Notes: generated from the sequence alone by a model not told the origin. A stretch of DNA of 15,541 nucleotides from Promethearchaeia archaeon (GCA_029856045.1 JAHQWG010000052.1:1-15541); one strand, 5' to 3'; counted from the stretch's first letter, positions 1,196-15,541 are shown. Numbers and translations: made by a program.

Positions 1196-2869
1196 TTATT
1201 TTTTGTGTGAAACTATAATTTCAGTTCCGAATAATATCTTTTTTGCTGTTTCAAAAGCAAAGTTATAGTCGAACACCTTCTTTCCCTTGGTATTAGTTGC
1301 ATCCTTAAAAACCTGGCTTTCGACTTTATATTTTAAACGCCCAATATCCAGAGCACCGATCCCATAAATACCCGGATAAATCTCATCGTCATTAGAATTT
1401 GGTTTTAATCCTTCAATCCCATATGGTGGAACTAAATTAATATCGAGAACAATCTTGTTTGGCGGGAGTTTTTCCATTAATTCTTTTGATATCATTTGAA
1501 TTCCGGCTTTTGCAACTGACCAAATTATATCGGCATCTTTTACTATTTCAAATTTCTCCTCATCAGTGGATGCCGCTACTCCAATTATTTCAGAAGCATC
1601 TTTACCAGCCTTTTCCGTTAATTTCTTTGCAAGTTCTTTTACAGCCTTTTCCCGACGAGAAATTATTATGGGTGTAGCGTGAAATTTAGCCGCGAGTATC
1701 GCTCCAATTTGCCCTACTGGTCCAGTACCCCCTAAAATGACTATTTTCTTTCCTGTAAAATCTGTTATTCCATGTTTTCTTGCAATTTCTATGGTTTTAG
1801 CAACAACTGCAGAAGCTGTAGTATGAGCTCCACGGGGATCTATAATTACAGGCGCCTCAAAAGGTGGAACAAGCGCATTTTGTATCTCTTCTGCAACTCT
1901 CTCTCCTTCATCAACATTTGATCCACCAACAAAATAAACGGTTGGAGCATTTGGTTTTCGTGAAAACATAGCATCTTGGACCAACTTTGCGACTCTATCA
2001 GATGTAATTTTGCAAAATGGAATAACAACATTAAATCCTGCATCATAGGCCATATTTATATCAAAAGGTGAAGCATATTCATCAGTATCAAAAAAATACA
2101 AAATACTCTCCGCTTTCTCTTTTTTCTTTACCTTTATTGGAATTATTTCAAGAACAGAGGTATTTATTAGTTCTTTTACTGAAGAAATATCATCCAAAGA
2201 TTCTTTAGCAACTTTTTTGATATTAATTTGTTCAATTTCAAGTCCTAAGTCATCTGCAAGATTTGTAATGCCTTCAAAATGTCTTTTATCACTTATAAAC
2301 AGTGCCTTTAAATGTTTTTTTTCGACTTTTTTCGCCAATTCAAAAATCCCCATCATCATCCAAGATTCGCGGATTTTATATCTTATCTCATTTTCCTGCT
2401 TATTATATTCATCAGATAAATGTTCTCTCCACATTACTAACTGTTGATAATGAGGATCATTCGGATGAATTCCGCCTTTTTCTTTTAATTGTTGAATTTC
2501 TGTATTTAATTTTTGAATAAGATCTTTACTACCATTCAATCCCGAAGAAATATAATTTAGAGCATTCTCGGGGATGCCTATCATTTTGTAGGGAATCTCA
2601 TTCTTTCTGAATAAATCTACGAATTCATCTTCATAAAGCAGTCTATCATTTGACCTCATCCCTTTATCCTCTACTACGAAGTCAGGGCTATATTTATTTA
2701 CTAAATTTTCAACAAATTCCATATATTCCTTAGAAACAAAAAATAAATTTGCAGCAATGGCTTCTTCCCCTGTCGGCTCTTCTAACGACCAATCTATCGG
2801 AAATTCACTCTCAACTAATACTAACTTAAGAGTCTTATTTTTTAAAGGTTTTAATTCTAAAGATTGCAT
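1196..2869 (-). CDS. mtdB: Fusion of an N-terminal TraB/Tiki-like domain (~230 aa) and an NAD(P)-dependent methylene-H4MPT dehydrogenase (MtdB/MtdA family); NADP-type fingerprint
   Basis: C-terminal half has DTDEYASPFDINMAYDAG, LVQDAMFSR, DPRGAHTTASA, GGTGPVG and DINLVPPYGIEG, all typical of MtdB/MtdA. GAGGT SD lies upstream of the ATG. Confidence 0.8.
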   Translation of the reverse strand: MQSLELKPLKNKTLKLVLVESEFPIDWSLEEPTGEEAIAANLFFVSKEYMEFVENLVNKYSPDFVVEDKGMRSNDRLLYEDEFVDLFRKNEIPYKMIGIPENALNYISSGLNGSKDLIQKLNTEIQQLKEKGGIHPNDPHYQQLVMWREHLSDEYNKQENEIRYKIRESWMMMGIFELAKKVEKKHLKALFISDKRHFEGITNLADDLGLEIEQINIKKVAKESLDDISSVKELINTSVLEIIPIKVKKKEKAESILYFFDTDEYASPFDINMAYDAGFNVVIPFCKITSDRVAKLVQDAMFSRKPNAPTVYFVGGSNVDEGERVAEEIQNALVPPFEAPVIIDPRGAHTTASAVVAKTIEIARKHGITDFTGKKIVILGGTGPVGQIGAILAAKFHATPIIISRREKAVKELAKKLTEKAGKDASEIIGVAASTDEEKFEIVKDADIIWSVAKAGIQMISKELMEKLPPNKIVLDINLVPPYGIEGLKPNSNDDEIYPGIYGIGALDIGRLKYKVESQVFKDATNTKGKKVFDYNFAFETAKKILFGTEIIVSHKK

Positions 2870-2891
2870 TTTTTAATTTACCTCATATTTT

Positions 2892-3590
2892 TTATTCAAT
2901 TTGTGTTGCGTGTTGTCCTATTTTTTTGAAAACTCTATTAACATTAATTTTTTCAACTTTTATTTCTAAATCATCTGCTAGAGATTTAATTCCATCAGAA
3001 TGTTCCTTATCACAGATAAATATTGCTTTTAGATTTTTCTTCTCAATCTTCCTTGCTAAATCAAGAATCCCCATCATCATCCAAGATTCTCGGACTTCAT
3101 ATCTTATCTCATCTTTTTGTCTGGAATATTCATCTTGTAAATGATCCCTCCACGCAATTAATTGCTGAAGGTTAAAATCGTTAGGATGGACACCACCCTT
3201 CTCTTTTAAATTCTCAATTTCTACTTTAATTTCTCTTAATAGACCTACATCTCTATCTATTGTCGAAGCAAGATAACCCAGAGCATTCTCGGAAATATCT
3301 ACCATTTTATATTGAATGTTAAATTTCCTGAATAAATCTACTAAAGCATCTTCATATTGTAAATCATCGCCTGAGCGCATTCCTTTCTCTTCCACTATAA
3401 AATCAGGCTTGTGATCTTTTACCAGATCTTCAATAAATTGCAAATATTCTTTAGACATAAGAAATAAATCCGCAGTAGTCATTTTTTTATCTGATGATAA
3501 TTCCATCGACCAATCTATCGGAAATTCACTCTCTACCAATAACAATTTAAGAGTTTTATTTTTTAAAGGTTCTAATTCTAATGTTTGCAT
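2892..3590 (-). CDS. Stand-alone paralogue of the N-terminal domain of the Mtd fusions (TraB/Tiki-like, unknown function)
   Basis: Colinear with aa 1-220 of 1196..2869 (ESEFPIDW, PDFIVEEKGMRS, KEKGGVHPND, RESWMMMGILD, ICDKEH). AGGAGGT SD upstream. Confidence 0.85.
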   Translation of the reverse strand: MQTLELEPLKNKTLKLLLVESEFPIDWSMELSSDKKMTTADLFLMSKEYLQFIEDLVKDHKPDFIVEEKGMRSGDDLQYEDALVDLFRKFNIQYKMVDISENALGYLASTIDRDVGLLREIKVEIENLKEKGGVHPNDFNLQQLIAWRDHLQDEYSRQKDEIRYEVRESWMMMGILDLARKIEKKNLKAIFICDKEHSDGIKSLADDLEIKVEKINVNRVFKKIGQHATQIE

Positions 3591-3608
3591 TTCTTTTTTA
3601 CCTCCTGT

Positions 3609-4238
3609 TTAAGTTAAAATTAAAATTGATTTTTTTTTCATAATTTTGTTAGTCTCAAAATTAATAACCTTGATACTTTGAGCTTCAAATAACTTTTTCA
3701 ATTCAGAAAACAATTCTTTATGGGTAAAATGGATAAAATTAATCTCATCTTCATTGATCATCTCAATTATATCTAATACTTTTTTTATGATCCATAAAGG
3801 CCTTAGTTTTAAGTCTAAATAATCTTCTTTGTCTTTTACTTCACTTTTTAAGAGATGTATCCATGAGAACAGGTTTTGAGCCTTTAATGACTCTTTTTCA
3901 GCAGGATTTAAACAGAGGTTTTCATATTCTCCTTGAAGTTCCTCAACTTGTTCTTTTTTATCTGATATCTCATTTAATAAATGGATTTTTGCGTAATCAG
4001 GGATATTAACATAATAATACGGCGTCTCAAAATTATCAAAAAACTGTGCTAAAGGAGTCTGATAAATCTTTTTTAATTCATCATCGCATAAATCAATCGT
4101 AGCAAAATTGAATTTTTTTCCTCTTAAGAGAATCAATAAATTATCATATTCTGCATCTGATAATTCTTTACTTTCCTTTTCTATTAGACATAAAGAAACT
4201 TTCTTTTCTTTTATCGGTTTTAATTCCAATACTTCCAT
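3609..4238 (-). CDS. Hypothetical protein, divergent member of the same domain family; first gene of operon 2
   Basis: Clear paralogue of 6260..6919 (FNFATIDL, IPDYAK, EISDKKEQ, AEKESLKAQNL, WIIKK). Same MxxLELxP start as the other family members. Confidence 0.8.
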   Translation of the reverse strand: MEVLELKPIKEKKVSLCLIEKESKELSDAEYDNLLILLRGKKFNFATIDLCDDELKKIYQTPLAQFFDNFETPYYYVNIPDYAKIHLLNEISDKKEQVEELQGEYENLCLNPAEKESLKAQNLFSWIHLLKSEVKDKEDYLDLKLRPLWIIKKVLDIIEMINEDEINFIHFTHKELFSELKKLFEAQSIKVINFETNKIMKKKSILILT

Positions 4239-4355
4239 TTTTTTTATCCCATTCCAAATTTTTAGGTATTTTTTTTTTCTTGAATTTTTTTATTACTATT
4301 TAATTGATTTAAATGCAATAATTTAATATATTTGATAAGAGGAATTTTGGACAAC

Positions 4356-4375
4356 TTGACTAATTAATTAGTCAA
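4356..4375. promoter_or_regulatory. Perfect 20-bp palindrome TTGACTAATTAATTAGTCAA, putative operator upstream of operon 2
   Basis: Exact inverted repeat in intergenic DNA about 120 bp upstream of ATG 4238. A counterpart lies at 7030-7049. Confidence 0.65.
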
Positions 4376-4382
4376 ATTGACC

Positions 4383-4512
4383 ATTTTTTTTATCATAAAT
4401 TAAAAGAATTTCTATTTTATAACTAGTTGTGAAAAAAATTTGACAAAAAAAGTTTGATAAAATTGACAATTGGAATAATCAAGAAAACAATTTTTTTTAT
4501 CATAAATTAAAA
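4383..4512. repeat. 23-bp exact direct repeat ATTTTTTTTATCATAAATTAAAA (4383-4405 and 4490-4512)
   Basis: Two identical copies read directly in the intergenic region between the two Mtd operons. Confidence 0.75.
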
Positions 4513-4562
4513 TATGCTTTTTAAGAATAAAATTAAAAAAAAAAAGTGAGTTTTGAATTTAT

Positions 4563-6245
4563 TTAGCGAGATATTACCATTTCTTTGCCAAATAATATTT
4601 CTTTTGCAATTTCAAAAGCAATATTATAATCGAATATTTTTTTTCCTTTAGTCTTAGTAGCTTTTTTAAGAATAGAACTTTCAGTTACAGATTTTAAATG
4701 GCCTATTCCTAATGCCCCGATTCCAAAAATTCCGGGATATATTTCTTCATTATCATATTTTGGTTTTATACCTTCAATACCATACGGTGGAACCAAATTA
4801 ATGTCTATAACGATTTTATTTTTTGGCAACTTACTCATTAATTCTATTGATAAAATTTGGATTCCTGCAGCTGCTAAAGACCAGATTATGTCAGCATCTT
4901 TGACTATTTTAAATTTTTGCTCATCCGTTATAGCGAATTCTCCAACTATTTCAGAAGCGCCTTCTCCTGCCTCTTCAGTTAATTCTTTTGCAAGTTTCTT
5001 AACGGCTTTTTCACTCCCTTTATCCCATGTCTCAACTAGAACTGTTTTACATTTTTGTTTTGCCGCAATTACTGCTGCAATTCGTCCAACTGGACCCGTG
5101 CCTAATACAACCGCTTTTTTTCCAGAGATATTATTTATCTTATGTTTCATTGCAACTTCTAGAGTTTTCGCGACTATTGCCGAAGCTGTAGTATGAGATC
5201 CTCGTGGATCTATAATTACAGGAACTTCGAAAGGTGGCACTAAGGACTTCACAACTGTTTTCGCAATTTTTTCACCTTCTCTTACATTTGCCCCACCAAT
5301 AAAAAAACTGGTCGGTGCTTTCGGTTTTCGTGAAAATATCGCATCCTGTACAAGTTTTGGCACTTGTTCAGCTTTTACATTGCTAATAGGAATGACTACA
5401 TCAAACCCTGCATCATATGCCATATTAATATCAAAGGGAGATGCATGCTCATCTGTATCTAAGAAATATACAATTTTTTCTAAAGAATTTTTATTCTTAA
5501 TTTTAACGGGAGCAACTTCCATAAGTGATACCTTTACGAATTCCTTTATCGTATTTGGTTTCTCTAAATCTCCAATATTTAAAATATTTTTCTTAACTTC
5601 AAATTTTTGAATTTCTACTCCAAGGTCATCTGCAAGGGTTGTAATCCCATTAAAATGCCTTTTATCACAAATAAATAGACATTTTAAGTTTTTCTCTTTC
5701 TGTTCTCTTGCCATATCAAGAATCCCCATCATCATCCAAGCTTCACGGATCTTATACCTTATTTCTTCCTCTTGATTTTCGTATTCCGCCTGTAAATATT
5801 CTCTCCACGTTAATAATTGCTGAAAATAGTGATCATTAGGATGAACCCCTCCTTTTTCTTTAATTTTTTCAATTTCTGCTTTAATCCCCTTTAAAAGTTC
5901 TACATTCTTGTTTATTGCTGAAACGAGATAACCAAGTGCGTTTTCTTCAATGTCTACCATTTTATAAGGTATTTTAAAATCTCTAAATAAATCTACAAAA
6001 GCATCATCATAATGTAATTTATCACTGGAACGCAATCCTTGTTCTTCAACTGCAAAATTTGTTTTATATTTCCGTAACATATCTTCAATAAGCTTAAGAT
6101 AATCTTTTGACATAAAACTGAAATTTAAAGATTGTTCAAGCTGCTCTTTTGTTGGTTCCAACCACCAACCAATTGGAAACTCACTTTCCATTAATGTTAT
6201 TTCTAATTTCTGGTTTTTTAATGGCTTTAATTCAAGTACATTCAA
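4563..6245 (-). CDS. mtdB: Fusion of an N-terminal TraB/Tiki-like domain and an NAD(P)-dependent methylene-H4MPT dehydrogenase (MtdB/MtdA family); NAD-type fingerprint
   Basis: DTDEHASPFDINMAYDAG, LVQDAIFSR, DPRGSHTTASA, GTGPVG, DINLVPPYGIEG. Full-length paralogue of 1196..2869. TTG start lies 10 nt after GGAGG, the same spacing as the ATG at 3590. Confidence 0.8.
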   Translation of the reverse strand: MNVLELKPLKNQKLEITLMESEFPIGWWLEPTKEQLEQSLNFSFMSKDYLKLIEDMLRKYKTNFAVEEQGLRSSDKLHYDDAFVDLFRDFKIPYKMVDIEENALGYLVSAINKNVELLKGIKAEIEKIKEKGGVHPNDHYFQQLLTWREYLQAEYENQEEEIRYKIREAWMMMGILDMAREQKEKNLKCLFICDKRHFNGITTLADDLGVEIQKFEVKKNILNIGDLEKPNTIKEFVKVSLMEVAPVKIKNKNSLEKIVYFLDTDEHASPFDINMAYDAGFDVVIPISNVKAEQVPKLVQDAIFSRKPKAPTSFFIGGANVREGEKIAKTVVKSLVPPFEVPVIIDPRGSHTTASAIVAKTLEVAMKHKINNISGKKAVVLGTGPVGRIAAVIAAKQKCKTVLVETWDKGSEKAVKKLAKELTEEAGEGASEIVGEFAITDEQKFKIVKDADIIWSLAAAGIQILSIELMSKLPKNKIVIDINLVPPYGIEGIKPKYDNEEIYPGIFGIGALGIGHLKSVTESSILKKATKTKGKKIFDYNIAFEIAKEILFGKEMVISR

Positions 6246-6259
6246 TTCATTTTTACCTC

Positions 6260-6919
6260 CTATTTTATAAATTGATTTGAAGTTATTACATTATTTTTAA
6301 CACTGAAAGTTCGATCTGAGATTTCAGTGTTTAAATTATGAATAATAACACTTATTTTGAATTCCTGAAGCAATTTTTCTATTTCAGGAACTAATTCTTC
6401 AGGACTAAAATGCAAAATAATTAAGGAATTTGTTTTATTAGCTCTTGCGTTATCAAATATTTTCTTAACGATCCATTGAGGCTTAACTTTTAATTTTAAA
6501 TAATTTTCTTTATCATTAACCTCATCTTTTAATAAAACTATCCAAGAGTCTAAATTTTGAGCCTTAAATGAATCTTTTTCGGCAGAATTAGATAATAAAT
6601 TTTCATATTCCGCCTCTAATTCATTAATCTGTTCTTTTTTATCGGATATTTCTTCTGATAAATAACCCTTTGCATATTCAGGGATATCAACACCCCAAAA
6701 TTGGATTAATAAATCTTCCAAAAACTTTGCTAAGGGTGATTTATTTAATTCTTTTAAATTTTTACCCATTAAATCTATAGTGGTAAAATTAAATTCACAA
6801 TTTTGTAAAAAATCCCCTAAATTTCTTGCTTCTACTTTTGATAATTTATGATTTTCTTTATTAATTATATATACAATAATCTTCTTATTTTCAGGTTTTT
6901 CAATTTCTAAAACTTCCAT
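6260..6919 (-). CDS. Hypothetical protein, divergent member of the TraB/Tiki-like family; first gene of operon 1
   Basis: Paralogue of 3609..4238. ATG at 6919 (MEVLEI) matches the paralogue's start (MEVLEL) better than the track's 6928. Its TAG stop overlaps the GGAGG SD of the next gene. Confidence 0.8.
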   Translation of the reverse strand: MEVLEIEKPENKKIIVYIINKENHKLSKVEARNLGDFLQNCEFNFTTIDLMGKNLKELNKSPLAKFLEDLLIQFWGVDIPEYAKGYLSEEISDKKEQINELEAEYENLLSNSAEKDSFKAQNLDSWIVLLKDEVNDKENYLKLKVKPQWIVKKIFDNARANKTNSLIILHFSPEELVPEIEKLLQEFKISVIIHNLNTEISDRTFSVKNNVITSNQFIK

Positions 6920-7026
6920 TTTAATCAAAAATCTTTATTTTTAATTTTTTTTTTTTAATTTATTCTTTTCTCGAGTAATAAACCTTATTTTATAATAAAA
7001 ATAATTTGATAAAAGAAATTTTATAT

Positions 7027-7052
7027 ATTTTAACAATAATTGTTGTTAAAAT
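7027..7052. promoter_or_regulatory. Near-perfect 26-bp palindrome with core TTAAC-N10-GTTAA (7030-7049), putative operator in the divergent intergenic region
   Basis: ATTTTAACAATAATTGTTGTTAAAAT has one mismatched pair. Same geometry as 4356-4375. Confidence 0.6.
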
Positions 7053-7416
7053 TGGGAGAAGTGAAAGAAATTAGTCATCGATGATTTATCAAATAATCAT
7101 TATTTAAAACAGTTTACTAAAAAAAATTGAATACGTCTTTTTTCCCTTCATTCTATGTAATCTTAAAGAAAAAATCTCGTTTTTTAAATAACTTGAATTA
7201 TCTTTTTTTTTTTTTAATTAATTTTATTTTCAGTTTAAAAAATTGGTATTATTTCTTTTTGAAGATTTTTGATCAGTAAGATTTTTATTTTTGATAATTT
7301 TATTTATCATAGTAGAAATGATAATTATTTTTTTTAATTATAATAATATTCAATTTTCGACAAAGAAATATAATTTCAAAATAATGTTTTATAAAATTTA
7401 TTAAAAGGAGATTGAA

Positions 7417-9948
7417 ATGGATATATATTCAATTTTAGCTCATCCATTTAGGAGGAAGATTTTACTACTTCTTGATAAGGAAAGTTATATCGCTTACACG
7501 GATTTGATGGACAGGTTAGGTTTAGAGACTACTGGGCAATTAAATTTTCACCTTAAAAAACTTGGGACTTTAATAAATAAAGATAAAAAATCCTATTTTC
7601 TCACGGAGGACGGAAAACGAGTTATAAATTTAATGAATATTGATAAAAAGATTTTGGCAGGCGAGGATATTGAATATTTAGATAAAGTTGGTAGTGAGAT
7701 TAATCGTGTAGGGGTTATTATTTGTAAGTGTAATACTGAAATTTCAAATCTTATAAGTATTAATGCACTTGAAAATTACCTTAAAAGAATTCCCAATGTG
7801 GTTACTGTGAAGATTTTTGATAATCTTTGTCAGGAGAAAAATATGGAACAGATTACTAAATGGTCTAAGGATAATTATTTGAATAAGATTGTTATTGCTG
7901 CGTGTTCTCCAAAAACTCATCTGCATATATTTGAGAGAATTTTTGATGGAGTTATTGATAAAGTTAATATTGAGATTGCTAACATCCGGGAACAATGTTG
8001 TTGGGTACATCAAAAGGAACCCACTTTAGCGTTAAAAAAAGCACAAATTTTAATTGAAGCGGCGGTTGAGCGCGTAGCATTACAAAAAGATGTTCAAGTA
8101 AAAACAGTTAAGATTGAAAAAAGTTGTGCTATTTTGGGTGGCGGAATTGCAGGGATGACACTTGCATCAAGTTTAGCAAAGGCTGGGATTAAAGTCTATT
8201 TAATTGAAAAATCCCCAACATTAGGAGGTAAAATTGCCAGGTGGAGTAAAATTTATGGAATGGGTGATTGTTCAATTTGTCTTATGTCAGAAATGATAGG
8301 TGAGGTCGTAAAAGAAAAAAATGTCGAAATTTATACCAATACTGAGATTGAGAAAGTTTCGGGTGAGGTAGGAAATTTTTCGATTGATTTAATTAAAAAG
8401 CCCCGATATATTGATGAAAAGAAATGTACTGGATGTAAAAGATGTATTGAAATTTGTAGTATAGAAAAAAGTAATCAATATGAATTTGGATTAACAGCAA
8501 GGAAGTTAATTTATATTCCTTATGTTCAATCTTATCCATATGCTCCAGTGATTGACCAAGAAGATATTGAAACTTGCCGACAATGTAGAATTTGCGAGCG
8601 AGCTTGCAACAATAATGCGATTGATTTGGATCAAAAACTTGAAAATATAAGGATTAGAGTTGGAACAAAAGTAATAGCAATAGGTGCAGATTTTTATTCT
8701 GATCTAAAGTCTTATAAATATAATCCCCAAAATGATATAATTACAACACCGGAATTTGAACGTATTCTATCAGCGGATGGACCAACAGAAGGTAAAATTT
8801 TGAAACTTTCAGATGGGAAACCCCCGAAAACTATCTCAATAATTCAATGTTTAGGCCCATTTGATGATTTGCCGGAACATTGTAGTACTCTCGCTTTAAA
8901 ATATTTGGAATCTATTTATTTACAGATTCCAGATTGTAAACTCAATATATTTTTTGATTTGAATAAAATTAGGAAATCTAATGGGTTCATGTTAGACCCA
9001 TCTGATGAAAAATTTCATTATTATGACAATATTGAAATTATAGAGAAAGGAAATAAGAAAATAATTATTTCTGATTCAGAGCAGTATCCCTCTGATATGA
9101 TCGTGTTAAATGTCAATTTTGTTCCAAATAAAGATTTAAAAGAACTTCGAAAGACATTAGATTTTACATTAGACGATCATGGTTTTATGAGTGAAGAAAC
9201 GCTGGCATCAGGTATTTTTGGTGTCGGTTCAATTAAAGGTCCATTAGATTATAATTCAGTGATCTCTTCTTCTAATGATATCGCTATTAAAATTATTTCA
9301 TTGTTATCAACTGATTATTTAATTACAGAATTTAGCGGTATCGAAATCAAAGAAGAGAATTGCGGATTGTGTGGTTTATGCATATTATCCTGCCCTTACA
9401 ATGCAATCACAATTGAGGCAGATAAAATTACTATTGATAAATTCAAATGTAAAGGATGCGGAACTTGTGTAAGTGTTTGTCCCACAAATGCACTTGACTT
9501 AAACATTGATACTACTGAAAAGATACTGAAATCAATTGAAGTATATTCTAAATTCAATTTAAAACCAAAAATAGTTGCATTCTGCTGTCGTTCTTGCGGA
9601 TATGGTGCAGCCGATGAAGCTGGTCTAAAGAAACTTTCCTATAATCCCAACATCTTTATTATTAAAGTTCCATGCACAGGGCGGGTAGATGCGAGTTTAA
9701 TTTTTAAATCTTTCAAATTTGGATTTGATGGAGTAATGATTATTGGTTGCAGAAAAGATTCCTGCCGATTTATAAATAGTGTAGATCAAGTAAAACAAAA
9801 AGTTAAACTTTTAAGAGAAGTTTTAGGTCCTATTGCTGAAAAACGAATAATACGTAAATCATTAAGCGCCGTCGAGGGCAATAAATTTGCAGAGATTGTA
9901 AATTCTTTTTATCAGAGATTATCGGAGGAGATTAAAAATGAAACCTAG
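7417..9948 (+). CDS. hdrA: Winged-helix (ArsR-like) DNA-binding domain fused to heterodisulfide reductase subunit A and a C-terminal MvhD domain
   Basis: aa 1-75 wHTH (LAHPFRRKILLLL...TGQLNFHLKKL...YFLTEDG). HdrA motifs CKC, AACSP, NIREQCCWVH, GGGIAG, DCSIC, four CxxCxxCxxxC ferredoxin motifs and EFERIL..DGPT. MvhD motifs FCCRSCGY, VPCTGRVD and DGVMIIGC...C. AGGAG SD upstream. Confidence 0.9.
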   Translation: MDIYSILAHPFRRKILLLLDKESYIAYTDLMDRLGLETTGQLNFHLKKLGTLINKDKKSYFLTEDGKRVINLMNIDKKILAGEDIEYLDKVGSEINRVGVIICKCNTEISNLISINALENYLKRIPNVVTVKIFDNLCQEKNMEQITKWSKDNYLNKIVIAACSPKTHLHIFERIFDGVIDKVNIEIANIREQCCWVHQKEPTLALKKAQILIEAAVERVALQKDVQVKTVKIEKSCAILGGGIAGMTLASSLAKAGIKVYLIEKSPTLGGKIARWSKIYGMGDCSICLMSEMIGEVVKEKNVEIYTNTEIEKVSGEVGNFSIDLIKKPRYIDEKKCTGCKRCIEICSIEKSNQYEFGLTARKLIYIPYVQSYPYAPVIDQEDIETCRQCRICERACNNNAIDLDQKLENIRIRVGTKVIAIGADFYSDLKSYKYNPQNDIITTPEFERILSADGPTEGKILKLSDGKPPKTISIIQCLGPFDDLPEHCSTLALKYLESIYLQIPDCKLNIFFDLNKIRKSNGFMLDPSDEKFHYYDNIEIIEKGNKKIIISDSEQYPSDMIVLNVNFVPNKDLKELRKTLDFTLDDHGFMSEETLASGIFGVGSIKGPLDYNSVISSSNDIAIKIISLLSTDYLITEFSGIEIKEENCGLCGLCILSCPYNAITIEADKITIDKFKCKGCGTCVSVCPTNALDLNIDTTEKILKSIEVYSKFNLKPKIVAFCCRSCGYGAADEAGLKKLSYNPNIFIIKVPCTGRVDASLIFKSFKFGFDGVMIIGCRKDSCRFINSVDQVKQKVKLLREVLGPIAEKRIIRKSLSAVEGNKFAEIVNSFYQRLSEEIKNET

Positions 9949-10699
9949 TTTCTTAATCGAATCATTGACTTCTTGTAGTGGTTGTATCTCAACAATGATT
10001 TCATTAGATATCTTTCCTCAATTTCTTGATAAGGTAAATCTCGTTCGTTGTTCATTTATGAGAGATGAAAATAATATCACTGAAAATGATATCGCTTTAA
10101 TTGAGGGGTGTGTTTCAGAGGAAAAACAAATCGATATTCTTAAAAATATTCGGAGTAAATCCAAGAGAGTAATTGCTTTAGGAACTTGTGCCGCTTTTGG
10201 AGGAATGCTTGCACTCTCAACGGTAAAACAAGCAGAACCTATATCTAATTATATTGAAATAGATGGAATAATTCCTGGATGTCCACCACCTTCTAAATTA
10301 TTAGGTAATTGTATTATTAGATTGTTAGAAAATAAAGATATAGTTTTACCTGAAAAAAACGTTTGTGCAGATTGTGAATTTAGAACTGATGATATTGAAA
10401 AAAAATTTAAGAGACGAATCAATGCAATAATGCCGAAAAATTATAATGTAGATAGTGAAATTGAAGATAAGCGTTGCTTTTTAGAAAGGGGAATTTTATG
10501 TTTGGGACCAATAACTAGAGATGGTTGCGAGTGTAAGTGCATTAAATTTGGCCTTCCTTGTGATGGGTGCATGGGACCAATTAAAAATGATTTCACCTCT
10601 AATACCATTAATTTTTTGAGCACGGTAAATCTTGCCAAAGGTCTAAGGAAATATAAAGGAATTTTCTATCGTTATTCAAAACCAAAAACCAAGAGGTAA
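9938..10699 (+). CDS. mvhG: [NiFe]-hydrogenase small subunit, group 3 (MvhG-like)
   Basis: SCSGC, IEG, GTCAAFGG, IPGCPP, CADC, CFL, CLGP, GCECKC and PCDGCMGP motifs. Overlaps the end of hdrA by 11 nt. Confidence 0.85.
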   Translation: MKPSFLIESLTSCSGCISTMISLDIFPQFLDKVNLVRCSFMRDENNITENDIALIEGCVSEEKQIDILKNIRSKSKRVIALGTCAAFGGMLALSTVKQAEPISNYIEIDGIIPGCPPPSKLLGNCIIRLLENKDIVLPEKNVCADCEFRTDDIEKKFKRRINAIMPKNYNVDSEIEDKRCFLERGILCLGPITRDGCECKCIKFGLPCDGCMGPIKNDFTSNTINFLSTVNLAKGLRKYKGIFYRYSKPKTKR

Positions 10700-10705
10700 A
10701 AAATT

Positions 10706-12010
10706 ATGAAGAAAGTAGTTGATGTATGCACCCGGGTTGAAGGACATGGAAATATAAAAATTTTACTTCAGAAGGATGAAATTACAAGTGTGAATTTTGA
10801 TCTTGAGATATTTCGAGGGTTTGAAAATCTATTGATTGATAAAAGGTTGATTGATGTTCCTAGAATTGCATCAAGAATATGTGGATTATGTCACGCATCA
10901 CAAACAATAGCAAGTTGCAAAGCAATAGAGAGCATGTATGAAATTGAACCCTCTCTACAATCAGTTCTTTTACGGCGATTATTAATGATTGGTGAGTTGA
11001 TAAAATCACATTCAATGCATTTCTTTTTTCAAGCATTTCCCGACCTTTTTGTAATTTTGGATAAACAACCAAAACCACTCTCACTGAATGAATTAGTCCA
11101 TTTTGATTCTAAATTAACTTCAAATATGTATGAATTAATAAAAATCGGCAATGAAATTGTGAATTTATTTGGCGGAAAATCCGTTCATTTAATAACACCC
11201 ATTATTGGTGGTATATTTTTTTCACCCTTAAAAAAAGAAATAAATCTTGCACGGAGATATCTACAAAATTCTATAAATAATTTAAAATGGGTTATTGAGC
11301 GTTTCATAGAGATATTTTCTCAATTTGATCCTCCTGTTGTTTATTCCTTACCAAATCCTGCTTATATGGGAATGCATAATGATGAAAAATTTGATCGGTA
11401 CAGTGGAATCTTACGATTGGCACAAAATAATAAAATTATCGCTGATTTTCCCGTATATAAACATTCACAATATTTTGATAAGCAGGAAGATTTACATGGA
11501 ATTGATTTCTATCTAAAAAACGACCAAAACATTCTTGTTGGCCCACTCGCACGGAATAAAATAATTAAAGATTATGGAATAGATGAACTGCAATCCTATA
11601 TTGGTCTTTTTAATAAAGAATGGCAAAATAGTATTTTATTCTCAAATTTTATTAGACTAATTGAAATGTTGTTTTTTTCTTATGAAGGTTTATCAATTCT
11701 AGATGAAGCTGAATTGATACAAAAAAATGATATAAGTCCCATTAATTTTTTAAAAAATAATGAAGGAATCGGCATGGTTGAGGCACCCCGAGGAACGCTT
11801 ATACATTATTATCATGTAAATAAAAAAAGATTAATTGATAAAGTGAAACTTTTTGTTGCAACTGAAATTAATTTGCCCATTATTGATGAAATCCTTACAA
11901 CACAAAGCCAAGAATTGTATGAAAGAACTGGTGATTTAAATCAGATCAAAAAACAAGCACAAATGATTATAAGATCGTTTGACCCCTGTATCTCTTGCGC
12001 AACACATTAA
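10706..12010 (+). CDS. mvhA: [NiFe]-hydrogenase large subunit, group 3 (MvhA-like), lacking the C-terminal extension
   Basis: TRVEGHG, RGFE, L1 RICGLC, VEAPRGTLIH and L2 DPCISCATH followed directly by TAA. Confidence 0.88.
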   Translation: MKKVVDVCTRVEGHGNIKILLQKDEITSVNFDLEIFRGFENLLIDKRLIDVPRIASRICGLCHASQTIASCKAIESMYEIEPSLQSVLLRRLLMIGELIKSHSMHFFFQAFPDLFVILDKQPKPLSLNELVHFDSKLTSNMYELIKIGNEIVNLFGGKSVHLITPIIGGIFFSPLKKEINLARRYLQNSINNLKWVIERFIEIFSQFDPPVVYSLPNPAYMGMHNDEKFDRYSGILRLAQNNKIIADFPVYKHSQYFDKQEDLHGIDFYLKNDQNILVGPLARNKIIKDYGIDELQSYIGLFNKEWQNSILFSNFIRLIEMLFFSYEGLSILDEAELIQKNDISPINFLKNNEGIGMVEAPRGTLIHYYHVNKKRLIDKVKLFVATEINLPIIDEILTTQSQELYERTGDLNQIKKQAQMIIRSFDPCISCATH

Positions 12011-12168: not shown

Positions 12169-14430
12169 TTATTTCTCTTCTTCCTTAAATATTTCCACTA
12201 TTTTATCTTCAGAATCTCTGAAAGGATGCAGAGCTCCTGTCCAATCCGGAAGATAAGTTTTATGTTTTTCCTCGAACCATTCAACAAATTCTTTTAAAAG
12301 ACTACGGTTTTCTAATGATTGTCTTCCTTTTACAAATAATGCTGAGAAAATATATTTCCCATATTCAATTATAATTGTGATATCTCCATGGTCAATAGTC
12401 TTTAGTAACTCCGAACTTTTTGTTGCTTCTTTAATGAAGGCTGTAATAGCAGTGAATAGACCTGCAATCAAGCCTGAATCGGCAATATCTCCCACTTGCT
12501 TAAAGTTATGGCTAACTAAATCCCTTCCATCTGAATAAATTACATAAAGTCCTTGCAGCTCGACTTTTTCATAATCATATGTGAATTCTGGAATCCAAAA
12601 AGAGATTTTTCCATTATAAAATAGATATTTTAAAGTAAAATAAAATCTACGCATTTCTTCCTTCTCTATTGGTCTAATTTCTTTCAAAAACTTATTATTC
12701 TTGATTATTTCTAATAAATCTTTAACTTCTTCTCTTTCTTCAATTTTTTCTGCTTTAACTTCTGGTTCAGGAGTTTTTACTACTAAATATCGATAGAGAT
12801 CTGTAACATATGCATCAAACTTTGGAAATTCAGAAATTCTTGAAAAAGAAATCTTTTCGACCATTTTTTCTCCCTTAAAAACATTTTTAGCAATAAAGAT
12901 TTTATTTAAATAATATAAAATTAATCCCCAGATTAATAGATTAAAAACATAGCGTGTATAAGTGAATGGAATCGCTAAAATTTCTAATAATGGAAATCCA
13001 CCTTGAGTTGAAAGGTTGACTTTGAACAATACTGTCCTTATTGTGTAAATATTTTTATCAAGAAATGAAAAATAAGCTGGTGAACCAGTAATCCAATATT
13101 CTTCCGGAGCAAAATTGATTGGAGGATAAAAACCTGCAAATCTAACCAATATTGAGATTAAAATGACAATCCCAAGATAGATAAAAGAAGTCATAGCAAT
13201 CTTTTTAATAAACTGCATACTTCTCGAGAAAAGATATGCAAAAAGTATAACAGAAAAAATTAAGATAAATGTATTTATGATATTAAATAGGTCTAATCTC
13301 AACGCCTCTTCTAAAAATATATTATTTCCATAAGAAATATCAGCTTTTAGTAGTAGTTCGTCAAAATATTCTTGACTCATAATTATCCCTATCTGTAATG
13401 GATTAATTAAAAATTGGTAAATAATAAGGAAAATTACACACCCTCCTACGCCAATAATTAAAGGAATATACCAATTTGTCCAATCTATCTTTTTTTTCTT
13501 CGTTTTTGTTCTTTTCCATAAATCAATTAACTTTATAAAAATTAAAATCGCAATAGGTTGAAAAATTTTATGGAATAAAATAAATATTCCAGCACCCATC
13601 ATAAAATATGCGAAGAAATAAAGTATGAAAACGTAATTTGTAGTAGTATCTGCTAAAAATAATAAAATGCTTAGAAGAGATATTGGAGTTCCTACTTGAA
13701 ACAAACTTCTAAAAGTATCTTCTCTCAATTTTTCTCCAATGTATACTCCTTTAAAGGAAATTTTACTACTATACACCAAGTGAATCCCAACTAACAGTGT
13801 AGCAATATATACAAATAAAATTTCCACAAACCATCCCATAGTTGTTGTACCTGTGGTTAAATCAATGCTCTCTAAACCTAAAAGTTCGATTATGACGGAT
13901 ATTAAGTATAGAGATATTGGCAAAAGAACAATTAATAATTTTAAGAGTTGTTTTTCTTCCGACCAATCACCTTTTATTAGTCCCTCTTCTATCATATCAG
14001 AAGGACTTTTTTTAAATTCAAAAGTTAGATCGGCAAGTTTATCCCTCATAACTCCCGGTTCTTTTCGCAATTTTCTCCATAATATAAGAAACGATAAAAG
14101 TGGACCTACTAAAAATATAAATGTTAAAGTTACAAAAGGATATTGGAAAAAATAGCCAATTAGAGACATCATATGAGAAAATATGAAAAAAAATGCCATA
14201 AAAATATTTTCTTGTTCTTGGGGATGCAATTGAAGCTCCTTAGGATCGATATCTGTTTGAAACATGATTGGTAAAATCCAATATACTAGAAAAAAAATAA
14301 CAATTCCTAAGAAGACTCTTAAGTATAATTTTCCAATTAATCTTTTATAAATAAAAGGAATTGGAATCGCCAAAAAAATGATTGGTAGCCCATTTAAAAA
14401 CAATAAATAAAATATTTCTATCGGTTCCAT
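12169..14430 (-). CDS. Multipass membrane protein (about 12-13 hydrophobic segments) with a C-terminal longin/roadblock-like domain
   Basis: Hydrophobic helices span aa ~5-510. The last ~130 aa (GLYVIYSDGRDL...DSGLIAGLFTAITAFIKE...IIIEYG...FEEKH...DWTG...F) follow the longin-like pattern common in Asgard proteins. Confidence 0.7.
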   Translation of the reverse strand: MEPIEIFYLLFLNGLPIIFLAIPIPFIYKRLIGKLYLRVFLGIVIFFLVYWILPIMFQTDIDPKELQLHPQEQENIFMAFFFIFSHMMSLIGYFFQYPFVTLTFIFLVGPLLSFLILWRKLRKEPGVMRDKLADLTFEFKKSPSDMIEEGLIKGDWSEEKQLLKLLIVLLPISLYLISVIIELLGLESIDLTTGTTTMGWFVEILFVYIATLLVGIHLVYSSKISFKGVYIGEKLREDTFRSLFQVGTPISLLSILLFLADTTTNYVFILYFFAYFMMGAGIFILFHKIFQPIAILIFIKLIDLWKRTKTKKKKIDWTNWYIPLIIGVGGCVIFLIIYQFLINPLQIGIIMSQEYFDELLLKADISYGNNIFLEEALRLDLFNIINTFILIFSVILFAYLFSRSMQFIKKIAMTSFIYLGIVILISILVRFAGFYPPINFAPEEYWITGSPAYFSFLDKNIYTIRTVLFKVNLSTQGGFPLLEILAIPFTYTRYVFNLLIWGLILYYLNKIFIAKNVFKGEKMVEKISFSRISEFPKFDAYVTDLYRYLVVKTPEPEVKAEKIEEREEVKDLLEIIKNNKFLKEIRPIEKEEMRRFYFTLKYLFYNGKISFWIPEFTYDYEKVELQGLYVIYSDGRDLVSHNFKQVGDIADSGLIAGLFTAITAFIKEATKSSELLKTIDHGDITIIIEYGKYIFSALFVKGRQSLENRSLLKEFVEWFEEKHKTYLPDWTGALHPFRDSEDKIVEIFKEEEK

Positions 14431-14514: not shown

Positions 14515-15541
14515 ATGAATAACATAGGGATAATCTCAGATAAAGATTTTGGAATTTTAAATGAACCACCTTTCCCCCGACCTTATTTTGAAGCATTTGA
14601 AACACCTTTAAGAATTAAATGTATTATGGATTACTTTGAAAAAAAGAACTTATTTGAAGATAATAGGATAAAAAAGATTCCAATAAGAAATTTTGAAAAG
14701 ATTGAGGCAATACTTGAATTAGTTCATACTAGATACCATATTGATTCAATAAAATATTTTTCAAATTTGGCTTCTGGAAGTGTTGGTGAAACTGTTTTCA
14801 TTACTGAAGAGACATTTAAATTAGCAAAAAAAGCAGTTGAAGGAACAATTACTGCTTTTAATTCCGTCATATCAGGAGAAGTCAATCAATCATTTGCTTT
14901 CATAAGACCTCCGGGTCATCATGCACTAAGAGATGTAGCTTCAGGTCTGTGCATTTTTAATAATATCGTAGTGGGTATTCAATATTTAAGAAAAATAAAA
15001 AAAAATGCGAAAAAATTCGCCATTATTGATATAGATAATCATTATGGAGATGGAATCGCCAAATTTTTTTATGAAGACCCTGAGGTCCTTTATTTTTCAA
15101 TTCATGAGTATGATTTTGACCAAGGGGAACTGGGTTTTATTCATGAGCTTGGAAATAATGAAGGTTTAGGCTATAACATTAATTTTCCAATACCTCCCAA
15201 AACTACTGATAAGTATTATTTAGATTTTTTTGATATTTTAGAGGCAGTGTTTTCAGAATTTAAACCTGAAATGATAATTATCGCCTGTGGATTTGATTGT
15301 CACTACACCGATCCCATCGGAAATTGTTTGCTTACAGCCAATTCCTACATAAAATTTACTCAAAAATTATTAACACTCGCAAATAATGTATGTAATGGGA
15401 AGATCTCATTTATCCTCGAAGGAGGATATAGCTTAAGTGCATTACCAATATGTTCTTACGCTATAGTTAAAACACTACTAGGTGATATGGTTAATCTACC
15501 TTCTCAAGAAAAAATAGAATTTCCCGAGGATTTAGATATCT
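14515..15541 (+). CDS. Zn-dependent histone deacetylase family protein (HDAC/AcuC/APAH), 3'-truncated by the window edge
   Basis: Manual translation from ATG 14515 (MNNIGIISDKDF...) is open to the end and contains RPPGHHA, GLCIFNN, DIDNHYGDG, SIH, GFD and LEGGY. Confidence 0.9.
   Translation, partial: MNNIGIISDKDFGILNEPPFPRPYFEAFETPLRIKCIMDYFEKKNLFEDNRIKKIPIRNFEKIEAILELVHTRYHIDSIKYFSNLASGSVGETVFITEETFKLAKKAVEGTITAFNSVISGEVNQSFAFIRPPGHHALRDVASGLCIFNNIVVGIQYLRKIKKNAKKFAIIDIDNHYGDGIAKFFYEDPEVLYFSIHEYDFDQGELGFIHELGNNEGLGYNINFPIPPKTTDKYYLDFFDILEAVFSEFKPEMIIIACGFDCHYTDPIGNCLLTANSYIKFTQKLLTLANNVCNGKISFILEGGYSLSALPICSYAIVKTLLGDMVNLPSQEKIEFPEDLDI

Follow-up and report, generated by a model that had tools for sequence, protein, structure and literature searches.

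The analyzed window comprised 15,541 nt of a Promethearchaeia archaeon genome (GCA_029856045.1, JAHQWG010000052.1:1-15541) and contained three consecutive genes on the plus strand. The first gene (7417–9948) encodes a protein of 843 aa in which an ArsR-like winged helix (wHTH), a linker, HdrA and MvhD follow one another in a single unbroken frame, with a GGAG sequence 7 nt upstream of the ATG. The second gene (9938–10699, 253 aa), whose 5′ end overlaps the 3′ end of the fusion gene by 11 nt, encodes an MvhG-like small subunit (PF01058; VhuG, 127 bits; VhuG/Oxidored_q6-like), and according to the gene-neighbourhood comparison its position was kept in 40 relatives. The third gene (10706–12010, 434 aa) encodes an MvhA-like [NiFe] large subunit. 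The ORFs and profile matches agreed with the sequence-only reading of the locus as an in-frame wHTH-HdrA-MvhD fusion followed by MvhG and MvhA, and the claim that hdrB and hdrC are missing from the operon also held: no gene encoding a CCG-domain (HdrB-like) protein was found in the window or beside any relative examined. Elsewhere in the genome, there were 41 CCG matches, and a canonical Vhu-type hydrogenase with HdrCB was retained at another place. No kinase gene was found in the window, and no second DNA-binding gene was consistently linked to the operon across relatives, many of which carried an frhB-like gene inside the operon.

A search with the N-terminal 100 residues revealed the same domain set, approximately 840–855 aa in size, in at least 153 clusters. 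The three-gene order was identical in approximately 40 Asgard genomes belonging to seven families (20 genomes of seven families in one count) and was also kept in distant versions of the fusion with 38–40% identity, and the window was matched in DNA runs from 14 studies. It should be noted that no RNA runs containing the locus were listed and that one genome of this order, a single contig of 4.4 Mb, gave no match to the fusion. The probability that a small regulator gene and hdrA had been misjoined is practically nil: no supporting point was found for it, the fused frame recurred in more than 150 clusters and approximately 40 independently assembled genomes as well as in the runs of 14 studies, and no in-frame ATG, GTG or TTG was present at the usual HdrA start. 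Thus, the architecture, for which a search across Asgard genomes had been proposed, recurs in several families and is neither an assembly artefact nor unique to this contig.

The winged helix occupies positions 7417–7656 on the plus strand (residues 1–80 of the fusion). Residues 2–71 matched DUF7347 (PF24038) in Pfam with 49 bits (cut-off 27.6) and, weakly, HTH_24 and HTH_20; with the latter profile (cut-off 27), the window protein scored 17.9 bits and the homologue P0124 30.8 bits, below and above the threshold, respectively. The A. fulgidus ArsR-type structure 1y0u in the PDB matched the N-domain with an E-value of 0.009. In the AF2 model (pLDDT 89), helices at residues 3–7, 10–22, 27–34, 39–52 and 64–80 and strands at residues 53–56 and 59–62 formed the topology α1-α2-α3-αR-wing-α5 (αR-β1-β2-α5), and the best Foldseek matches of this model were CadC, ArsR, NolR and YodB (TM 0.6–0.73) and also Rv0081; the model therefore gave the ArsR-type fold that had been proposed from the sequence alone. 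The recognition helix TGQLNFHLKKL corresponded to residues 39–49, and 111 of 120 fusion proteins carried the pattern TGQLNFHL[KR]K[LI], with T39, G40, N43, H45 and L46 being invariant. Pairing of the winged helices, which had likewise been suggested, was predicted with an ipSAE of 0.63 (best control 0.02), the interface being formed by residues 1–13 and 68–85 (α1/α5); at least 61% of the contacts agreed between runs, with a pLDDT of at least 85. In the benchmark, 20 of 30 solved homo-pairs scored at least this high, as did one of 23 single chains, and the pass of the wHTH pair may reflect likeness to ArsR dimers, because such dimers have already been solved.

Features shared with ArsR/SmtB repressors (CadC 1u2w, NolR 4omy, 1y0u) are the fold, the signature of the recognition helix, the α1/α5 dimer as predicted and a candidate dyad operator that overlaps the promoter of its own gene; however, the domain studied here is covalently joined to a redox enzyme of 750 residues and has no metal/thiol site. 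Residues 1–96 contained no cysteines, no ArsR-type site of Cys/His ligands in α3N or α5 was found, and no ligand site was evident in the wHTH. Consequently, any switching signal would have to originate in the HdrA body and pass through the linker (7657–7704, plus strand; residues 81–96), a flexible, disordered 16-residue segment recognized by its pLDDT (<50 at residues 84–92 of the full-length model) and its low conservation in distant families. In the structure of class II benzoyl-CoA reductase described in a preprint, the MvhD-like adaptor BamF contains a wHTH that contacts BamI, so that a winged helix can be a protein-contact module in Hdr-like complexes (10.64898/2026.04.10.717634). By analogy, the wHTH could be a structural or docking module for another protein, with the palindrome described below bound by an unrelated regulator, but this is improbable: the ArsR recognition-helix signature is kept, the nearest structures are those of DNA-bound repressors, the domain stands undocked on a disordered linker in the model, and the predicted ArsR-type dimer leaves the recognition helices free.

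A perfect operator-like palindrome, TGATAA-TTTTAT-TTATCA (7292–7309, unstranded), was found directly 3′ of a TATA-like run (7282–7291) and 108 nt upstream of the ATG, with an extra half-site TGATAA at 7320–7325. The element is conserved in orthologous promoters, where it lies 3–4 nt after a conserved TTTATATA box. A distal operator-like site, TAACAA-TAATTG-TTGTTA (7031–7048, unstranded), departs from the pattern by two symmetrically placed mismatches and follows AAGAAATTTT; its context is conserved across genera, and same-genus relatives have comparable upstream sites at −363 (perfect) and −392 (one mismatch). Four related sites with one or two mismatches (starts 4357, 4378, 4464 and 4485; 4357–4502, unstranded) are clustered in an intergenic region within the neighbouring array of paralogue/Mtd-like genes. 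The two densest 200-nt intervals for related sites in the whole genome were the one at this cluster and 7274–7473.

Among 54 non-redundant upstream regions, TGAYAA-N6-TTRTCA was found as a perfect match in 21 (0.03 expected) and with one mismatch in nine (0.85 expected), although these counts were made in the very promoters that had yielded the pattern, so that loci with frhB as the first gene provide the only true prediction test. The loci without a palindrome within 400 nt had a co-directional frhB-like gene in front, and sites were present upstream of frhB in six of six frhB-first loci; the palindrome thus moves with the promoter. In a second genome set, a promoter-region site was found in 20 of 20. 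By family, the palindrome occurred in f1, f3, f21 and f14 and, with one mismatch, in f9, and no site with up to one mismatch was found within 400 nt in f18 promoters. The dyad element and the wHTH domain share one phylogenetic range of conservation, and the element stays with the promoter in operons that have changed, which further argues against a mere docking role of the domain; an unlinked transcription factor could nevertheless be the binder. Promoter k-mer enrichment was discarded as evidence for the motif, since it mostly reflected shared ancestry.

The whole 3.34 Mb genome contained six perfect sites, two intergenic and four inside ORFs; the other intergenic site (C36:25862) lies upstream of a ThuA/GATase-like gene that shows no evident connection. 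Sites with up to one mismatch were not enriched genome-wide (21 intergenic sites versus a median of 17 for 119 permuted palindromes), and a large regulon was therefore rejected. Any regulon would be tiny, contrary to what one would expect of a global H2 sensor.

The HdrA body (7705–9552, plus strand; residues 97–712) was delimited by the match to PDB 8rvu_a, which aligned over residues 94–709 (E-value = 6e-119), and by invariant Cys columns, and the MvhD-like [2Fe-2S] domain (9553–9948, plus strand; residues 713–843 and the stop codon) by PF02662 (116 bits) and 5odc_D (E-value = 1e-25). The HdrA2-like profile covered residues 97–837 and FlpD/MvhD residues 719–836. The fusion fell short of the curated HdrA scores in NCBIfam, with 590 bits versus 1100, 441 versus 1300 and 388 versus 1400. 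The HdrA2 protein of Methanosarcina partners with HdrB2C2 and is not known to have a wHTH or an adjacent hydrogenase. Its profile (NF040770) was the best NCBIfam match, with the same HdrA-MvhD fusion order (590 bits versus 1100). Compared with the MvhAGD-HdrABC/Vhu complexes of methanogens (5ODC, 8RVU), the subunit types and cofactor sites are the same, with retention of both ferredoxin domains, the N-terminal cluster, the FAD motif and the CxxC pair; however, the complex studied here has a predicted N-terminal DNA-binding domain, MvhD fused to HdrA, no HdrB/HdrC alongside, no HdrBC-feeding cluster, Gln for His and no tail in MvhA, and scores far below the NCBIfam cut-offs.

The flavin-domain [4Fe-4S] cluster (C...CSxxCC, presumably the motif of its ligands) passes electrons to HdrBC (PMC9012536, PMC13580544). 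In the window protein, this motif is degenerate (IQCLGPFDDLPEHCSTLALKY, two of four Cys), and by an anchor-based count 108 of the 110 Loki-type fusions that could be scored had lost it (0 Cys in 65, 1 Cys in 36 and 2 Cys in 7). The DCSIC pair is retained, including the Cys that ligates the cluster of the partner protomer, which speaks for a dimer. Every Cys of the ferredoxin domains (N-terminal, inserted and C-terminal) is invariant, as is the FAD GxGxxG motif. Judging from these sequences, the invariant FAD motif and ferredoxin Cys, together with the common FrhB-like partner, point to real electron throughput. They favour an explanation that we regard as rather unlikely overall, namely, that of a trigger enzyme: a metabolic H2:ferredoxin oxidoreductase whose wHTH would provide feedback on its own synthesis only, as in PutA and BirA, with no dedicated sensing, or, with the FrhB-like subunit encoded in the operons of many relatives, an H2-dependent bifurcating reductase of ferredoxin and a second carrier. 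An essentially local regulon and the canonical His and four-Cys flavin-domain cluster kept in distant lineages also support this explanation.

The large subunit bears on the same question. Among solved structures, it is closest to MvhA and other group 3 enzymes, the best match being MvhA 5odc_F (E-value = 1.7e-47); the VhuA profile gave 171 bits against a cut-off of 800, below the curated family score. The four Ni-Fe cysteines are kept (RICGLC, DPCISC), as expected for a catalytic trigger enzyme. The L1 motif is RVEGHG, and L2 is RICGLCHASQ, with Gln at the position of His in other hydrogenases; this His is conserved in all non-sensory [NiFe] hydrogenases, and Gln is of the sensor type (PMC5665086). 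The protein ends with DPCISCATH-stop and has no cleavable tail, 5odc_F being 25 residues longer, and an absent C-terminal extension is a trait of sensory hydrogenases (PMC8229454). Of the features of group 3c (Mvh/Vhu), the Ni-Fe Cys and the MvhD partner are present, and the L2 His and the cleavable tail are absent. Judged by its residues, the hydrogenase part in the window lineage looks adapted to signalling over bulk catalysis. Within the wHTH-linked clade, Gln was found only in families f1 and f3; the tail was wholly absent only in f1, and f3 retained a short tail. The Gln, missing-tail and lost-cluster traits were confined to f1 and f3, or to f1, f3 and f21. The wHTH and the operator were also present in more distant lineages, in which the canonical His, the four-Cys cluster and a short tail on MvhA had been kept. 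Thus, the wHTH and the operator are older than the sensor-like traits, which are consequently not needed for a regulatory function.

Cross-genus identity was 62–80% for the wHTH, 62–69% for HdrA, 54–59% for MvhG and 45–55% for MvhA, so that conservation peaked in the wHTH and was lowest in the hydrogenase large subunit, whereas the canonical VhuA-type subunit of the genome had 79–91% identity across the same family. Such rapid evolution of the catalytic subunit argues against a purely metabolic enzyme with feedback, as do the degenerate L1 proton-transfer motif in families f9 and f14, the sensor-type Gln and absent tail in the window lineage, and the canonical Vhu-type hydrogenase with HdrCB that is retained for bulk H2 metabolism. 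Beyond the sequence-only reading, new evidence was thereby provided by the palindromic operator, the MvhA substitutions, the lost HdrBC-facing cluster and the wHTH-peaked conservation gradient.

Since a conserved, predicted DNA-binding domain of the repressor type coincides with a matching, near-unique palindrome in its own promoter, the complex probably reads H2 or redox state and switches genes directly. On balance, we lean towards a DNA-binding hydrogenase-flavoprotein complex that would autoregulate and probably sense H2 or redox state. In this model, a dimeric complex (wHTH-HdrA-MvhD/MvhG/MvhA)2 would pass electrons from the [NiFe] hydrogenase through Fe-S clusters to the [2Fe-2S] cluster of MvhD and on to the HdrA flavin, each HdrA bearing its ArsR-type domain on the flexible 16-residue tether. 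The two winged helices, paired via α1 and α5, would bind TGAYAA-N6-TTRTCA, which is flanked by the TATA box and the predicted start of transcription, and thus repress the operon; binding probably extends to a second site 100–250 bp upstream and to the related sites of the neighbouring Mtd-like operon. The balance between electron input from H2 and the ferredoxin pool, which is reached via the conserved ferredoxin domains, would alter the redox state or conformation of the HdrA N-terminal domain, where the tether is anchored, and thereby change DNA binding.

The sensor interpretation of the sequence-only reading stood in part: recurrence, fold, predicted dimer and the absence of hdrBC speak for it, and the complex may be more than a pure sensor, given the invariant FAD site and ferredoxin-exit clusters and the FrhB-like partner. 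A hydrogenase wired via Fe-S clusters and flavin to a DNA-binding domain would allow H2 partial pressure, weighed against the ferredoxin pool, to set transcription. The stronger proposal built on this, that of a one-component H2 sensor with no kinase or second messenger, specialized for signalling in the Loki-type clade, is tentative and somewhat doubtful. The conserved throughput sites, the FrhB-like partner and the canonical traits in distant lineages make a working enzyme that also regulates equally possible.

In PutA, the redox state of the flavin controls the switch, and the enzyme represses its own operon. PutA and BirA are enzymes with a DNA-binding domain, and the plan proposed here resembles that of PutA, with an N-terminal domain on a (flavo)enzyme and repression of its own operon; unlike PutA, the domain is an ArsR-type wHTH rather than a ribbon-helix-helix, the enzyme is an unrelated multi-subunit metalloenzyme, and H2 is the likely signal. 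To our knowledge, the known H2 sensors are all bacterial and act via kinases; HoxBC/HupUV (group 2b) signal through a histidine kinase (the PAS kinase HoxJ/HupT) and a response regulator. The window MvhA shares with them the Gln for the active-site-adjacent His and the absent C-terminal extension (PMC5665086, PMC8229454); however, it does not belong to group 2b, its nearest relatives being of group 3c, and the DNA-binding domain is within the complex itself. No description of the fusion was found in the literature on DUF7347, on wHTH/ArsR domains with HdrA or on Asgard hydrogenase regulators, in agreement with the sequence-only reading, whose author was not aware of such a system. A survey of archaeal fusions reported HdrA-HdrA and HdrA-MvhD, and not wHTH-HdrA-MvhD, proteins (PMC11237513).

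Asgard annotations of "MvhADG-HdrABC" lump at least two very different systems. The 18-bp candidate operator and the 96-residue domain form a concrete pair to probe. Naturally occurring variants, some with the sensor-like substitutions and the lost Fe-S cluster and some lacking these changes, form a series that could reveal how a regulator arose from a bifurcating enzyme. Exchange of H2 has a central place both in the partnerships of Asgard archaea and in syntrophy-based models for the origin of eukaryotes. If the proposed reading is true, the hydrogenase complex itself would be a transcription factor in these organisms, unlike kinase-based sensors.

The wHTH–HdrA–MvhD fusion gene (7417–9948, plus strand) encodes a protein of 843 aa and is tightly packed on the same strand with the genes of an MvhG/VhuG-like small subunit (9938–10,699, 253 aa) and of the [NiFe] large subunit, mvhA (10,706–12,010, 434 aa); the closest solved structure to the latter is MvhA of the Mvh–Hdr complex (5odc_F, E-value = 1.7 × 10−47). 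The ATG of the fusion gene at position 7417 is preceded by GGAG. Profile matches were obtained for DUF7347 at residues 2–71 of the fusion protein (49 bits at a cut-off of 27.6; HTH_24 and HTH_20 also matched weakly), for HdrA2-like proteins at residues 97–837 (590 bits) and for FlpD/MvhD at residues 719–836. Since the usual HdrA start position contains no in-frame start codon, HdrA can be made solely with the N-terminal domain attached. The in-frame joining of an ArsR-like winged helix to HdrA–MvhD, seen in the sequence-only reading, was confirmed, and the lack of hdrB and hdrC in the operon, also noted there, held, with no HdrB- or HdrC-like gene found within the window. Beyond the operon, the window contains the gene of a polytopic membrane protein (12,169–14,430, minus strand, 753 aa) with no Pfam match and a histone-deacetylase-family gene (14,515–15,540, plus strand) that continues past the window end.

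The fusion is real and old and is not unique to this contig. A search using residues 1–100 only recovered at least 153 clusters of approximately 840–855 aa with an identical Pfam set and 63–80% identity over the N-terminus, named as Promethearchaeota, Loki-, Thor-, Hod-, Hermod-, Hel- and Odinarchaeota. An exhaustive profile-free search added further full-length relatives with just 38–40% identity, in which DUF7347 was also N-terminal and genes for both hydrogenase subunits, small and large, also lay downstream. In a phylum survey of 301 genomes (match over residues 1–240 in a single frame, approximately 845–900 aa), the fusion was found in the window's own family (about 50 of 68 genomes), in five other families and in part of family f9, and was not found in several other families. 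The gene order fusion–mvhG–mvhA was identical in 20 of 20 genomes from seven families, and the window stretch itself was present in DNA runs of 14 marine and salt-marsh sediment studies. The literature searched contained no description of HdrA, or of a hydrogenase complex, bearing a DNA-binding domain, and the sequence-only reading likewise named no described system with this architecture; the complex would belong with known kinds of systems, namely, enzyme-fused one-component regulators and H2-sensing hydrogenases, and form no new category.

Residues 7–69 of the fusion protein align with the ArsR-type repressor 1y0u. The AF2 model of the N-domain (pLDDT 89) had the ArsR topology α1-α2-α3-αR-wing-α5, and its nearest solved structures were CadC, ArsR, NolR (DNA-bound), Rv0081, YodB and QsrR (TM 0.6–0.73), so that the expected wHTH fold is borne out by prediction. 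The recognition helix TGQLNFHL[KR]K[LI] was found in 111 of 120 fusion proteins, with T39, G40, N43, H45 and L46 invariant even in distant versions. Residues 84–92 were disordered when the full-length protein was modelled (pLDDT 87), which suggests that the wHTH is carried undocked on a flexible tether. A wHTH homodimer was predicted with an interface of α1 (residues 1–13) and α5 (residues 68–85), scoring 0.63 versus 0.02 for the best control, with run-to-run contact agreement of at least 61% and pLDDT of at least 85; of the solved homo-pairs, 20 of 30 reached that mark, as did 1 of 23 single chains, and the pass may reflect likeness only, because ArsR dimers have already been solved. To our knowledge, HdrA is dimeric in all solved complexes, and the fusion HdrA conserves the DCSIC pair, which in methanogen HdrA provides a Cys ligand to the cluster of the partner protomer; therefore, two winged helices per complex are expected.

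The inverted repeat TGAYAA-N6-TTRTCA was spotted by eye in a comparison of operon promoters. Among 54 non-redundant upstream regions of 400 nt each, a perfect operator-like site was present in 21 and a one-mismatch site in 9, versus 0.03 and 0.85, respectively, expected from first-order Markov simulations, counts that overstate the case because the pattern was derived from those very sequences. The site was found in families f1, f3, f21 and f14 and, in one-mismatch form, in f9, among which the remaining intergenic sequence was unalignable. All loci lacking the motif had a co-directional FrhB-like gene directly before the fusion gene, and the single genuine prediction test was the expectation of the motif upstream of the frhB-like gene in such frhB-first loci. 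In Loki_b32, two perfect sites were located 261 and 92 nt before frhB, with no others in 18.5 kb; in a second locus set, sites preceded frhB in 6 of 6 frhB-first loci, and a promoter-region site was present in 20 of 20 genomes. The common layout comprised two sites, usually 96–170 nt apart, the distal one preceded by AAGAAAATTTT and the proximal one flanked by GATCA repeats and lying 3–4 nt after a conserved TTTATATA box, which is where an archaeal repressor site classically lies. It should be noted that GATCA/GATCAT words were conserved around the proximal operator in the arrangement GATCA-N-ATTTATATA-N3/4-operator-TAGA-GATCAT (promoters of loci L028, L048, L055, L057, L091, L095, L097, L099, L103 and others) and could represent the site of a second protein or a methylation motif. 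The fused winged helix was the sole DNA-binding domain that constantly accompanied the operator-like element; a purely structural role for it, which has a precedent in BamF, fits poorly.

In the window, the proximal operator-like site (7292–7309) is a perfect match, the distal one (7031–7048) is symmetric and palindromic with two mismatches, and four related sites are clustered at 4357–4502 within the adjacent gene array. The 3.34 Mb genome contains six perfect sites, four inside ORFs and two intergenic, and both of its densest 200-nt site windows are at the fusion locus. Sites with at most one mismatch showed no overall genome-wide enrichment, and any regulon would thus be local. The best-supported reading is a dimeric hydrogenase–flavoprotein complex that would bind the palindromes of the operon's promoter and probably also the sites of the neighbouring operon. 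In other genomes, an frhB-like gene heads the wHTH–hdrA operon; one of the six perfect palindromes (G000:C44:55026–55043) falls within the 5′ end of that gene's closest homologue (57% identity), and could be due to chance or functional.

The HdrA part retains the FAD motif, the N-terminal-domain cluster and the inserted and C-terminal ferredoxin domains, and the MvhD [2Fe-2S] ligands and all four Ni–Fe cysteines are also kept. The L2 motif of the large subunit is RICGLCHASQ, whereas that of MvhA is RICGICQVAH; its Gln, limited to families f1 and f3, occupies a position that we equate with HoxC Gln67, four residues after Cys63. In every f1 member, ...DPCISCATH forms the exact C-terminus of the large subunit, whereas 5odc_F is 25 residues longer; the large subunits of other families have short C-terminal tails, and regulatory hydrogenases likewise lack a C-terminal extension (PMC8229454). 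In contrast to canonical Mvh–Hdr, the flavin-domain motif C...CSxxCC retains just two Cys in the window protein; of the 110 Loki-type fusions that could be scored, 108 have 0–2 Cys in it, and the distant families f18, f14 and f9 have it intact. This motif is presumably the ligand set of the flavin-domain cluster HA4, which published structures place on the route leading from FAD to HdrBC (PMC9012536, PMC13580544). Another departure from canonical Mvh–Hdr is the degenerate L1 motif of f14 and f9: at the MvhA N-terminus of their loci L039–L043, RxEGH is replaced by TRIEGDS or TKVGGPS, with the four metal cysteines, the canonical His and the 4-Cys cluster of HdrA all retained. At locus L023 (P0126 context), a distant wHTH–HdrA–MvhD/MvhG/MvhA operon lies directly downstream of NuoE-like, NuoF-like and Fer2 genes and a small-subunit–ferredoxin fusion gene, which may form a different electron-input module.

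When genera of the family were compared with the window's proteins, identity was 62–80% for the wHTH, 62–69% for HdrA, 55–65% for MvhD, 54–59% for MvhG and 45–55% for MvhA; in f9 and f14, the wHTH was still 44–50% identical, with MvhA down to 24–25%. In terms of sequence identity, the DNA-binding domain is the most constrained part of the wHTH-linked system. The one other [NiFe] hydrogenase in the genome is Vhu-type (VhuA model 423 bits; G000:C35:55900–60250, minus strand; locus L044 7912–12224), with a 438-aa small subunit, a VhuA-like large subunit without the C-terminal Cys motif, and HdrC-like and HdrB-like genes, with no HdrA, downstream; the gap of approximately 300 nt after vhuA could encode a VhuU selenopeptide. 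Its large subunit, detected in 59 of 71 genomes, is 79–91% identical across the family. These gradients indicate that the wHTH-linked hydrogenase is a second system that evolves fast, next to a canonical hydrogenase under strong constraint. Contigs C32, C44, C15, C46 and C36 of the same genome carry about ten more HdrA paralogues with adjoining MvhD-like genes, several of which contain 1–4 TGA codons in frame, as would fit the selenocysteine-containing HdrA and VhuD reportedly present in Asgard archaea.

In the proposed mechanism, electron input from H2 would alter DNA binding of the complex, and the tether, by connecting the wHTH with the N-terminal domain of HdrA, would provide a path by which redox state could act on DNA binding. 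In methanogen complexes, this N-terminal domain bears the shuttle cluster HA3, described as moving with the mobile arm during turnover (PMC13580544), and by analogy a mobile HA3-bearing domain at the tether makes such a route plausible. The complex may be chiefly a sensor, or it may be a working enzyme with autoregulation as well, that is, a trigger enzyme. In favour of the latter are the invariance of the ferredoxin-exit clusters, the occurrence of an FrhB-like partner in many relatives, the very limited regulon and a wHTH older than the sensor-like traits, whereas those traits themselves, together with the gradient of conservation and the retention of a canonical hydrogenase, argue for signalling.

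Divergently upstream of the fusion gene (1196–6928, minus strand) lie five tandem paralogues of an unnamed family, all starting with MxxLE(L/I)KP and with no Pfam match for the shared family. The two long paralogues (1196–2869 and 4563–6245, minus strand) combine an N-terminal domain of methylene-H4MPT dehydrogenase (Mpt_N) with a Rossmann-type C-terminus. In another genus, a homologue with 40% identity is likewise divergent beside the fusion gene, and the related sites within the array suggest that the same factor may control the paralogue genes too. If the fusion factor does control these neighbours, H2 sensing would, tentatively, be linked to a redox step of the Wood–Ljungdahl methyl branch.
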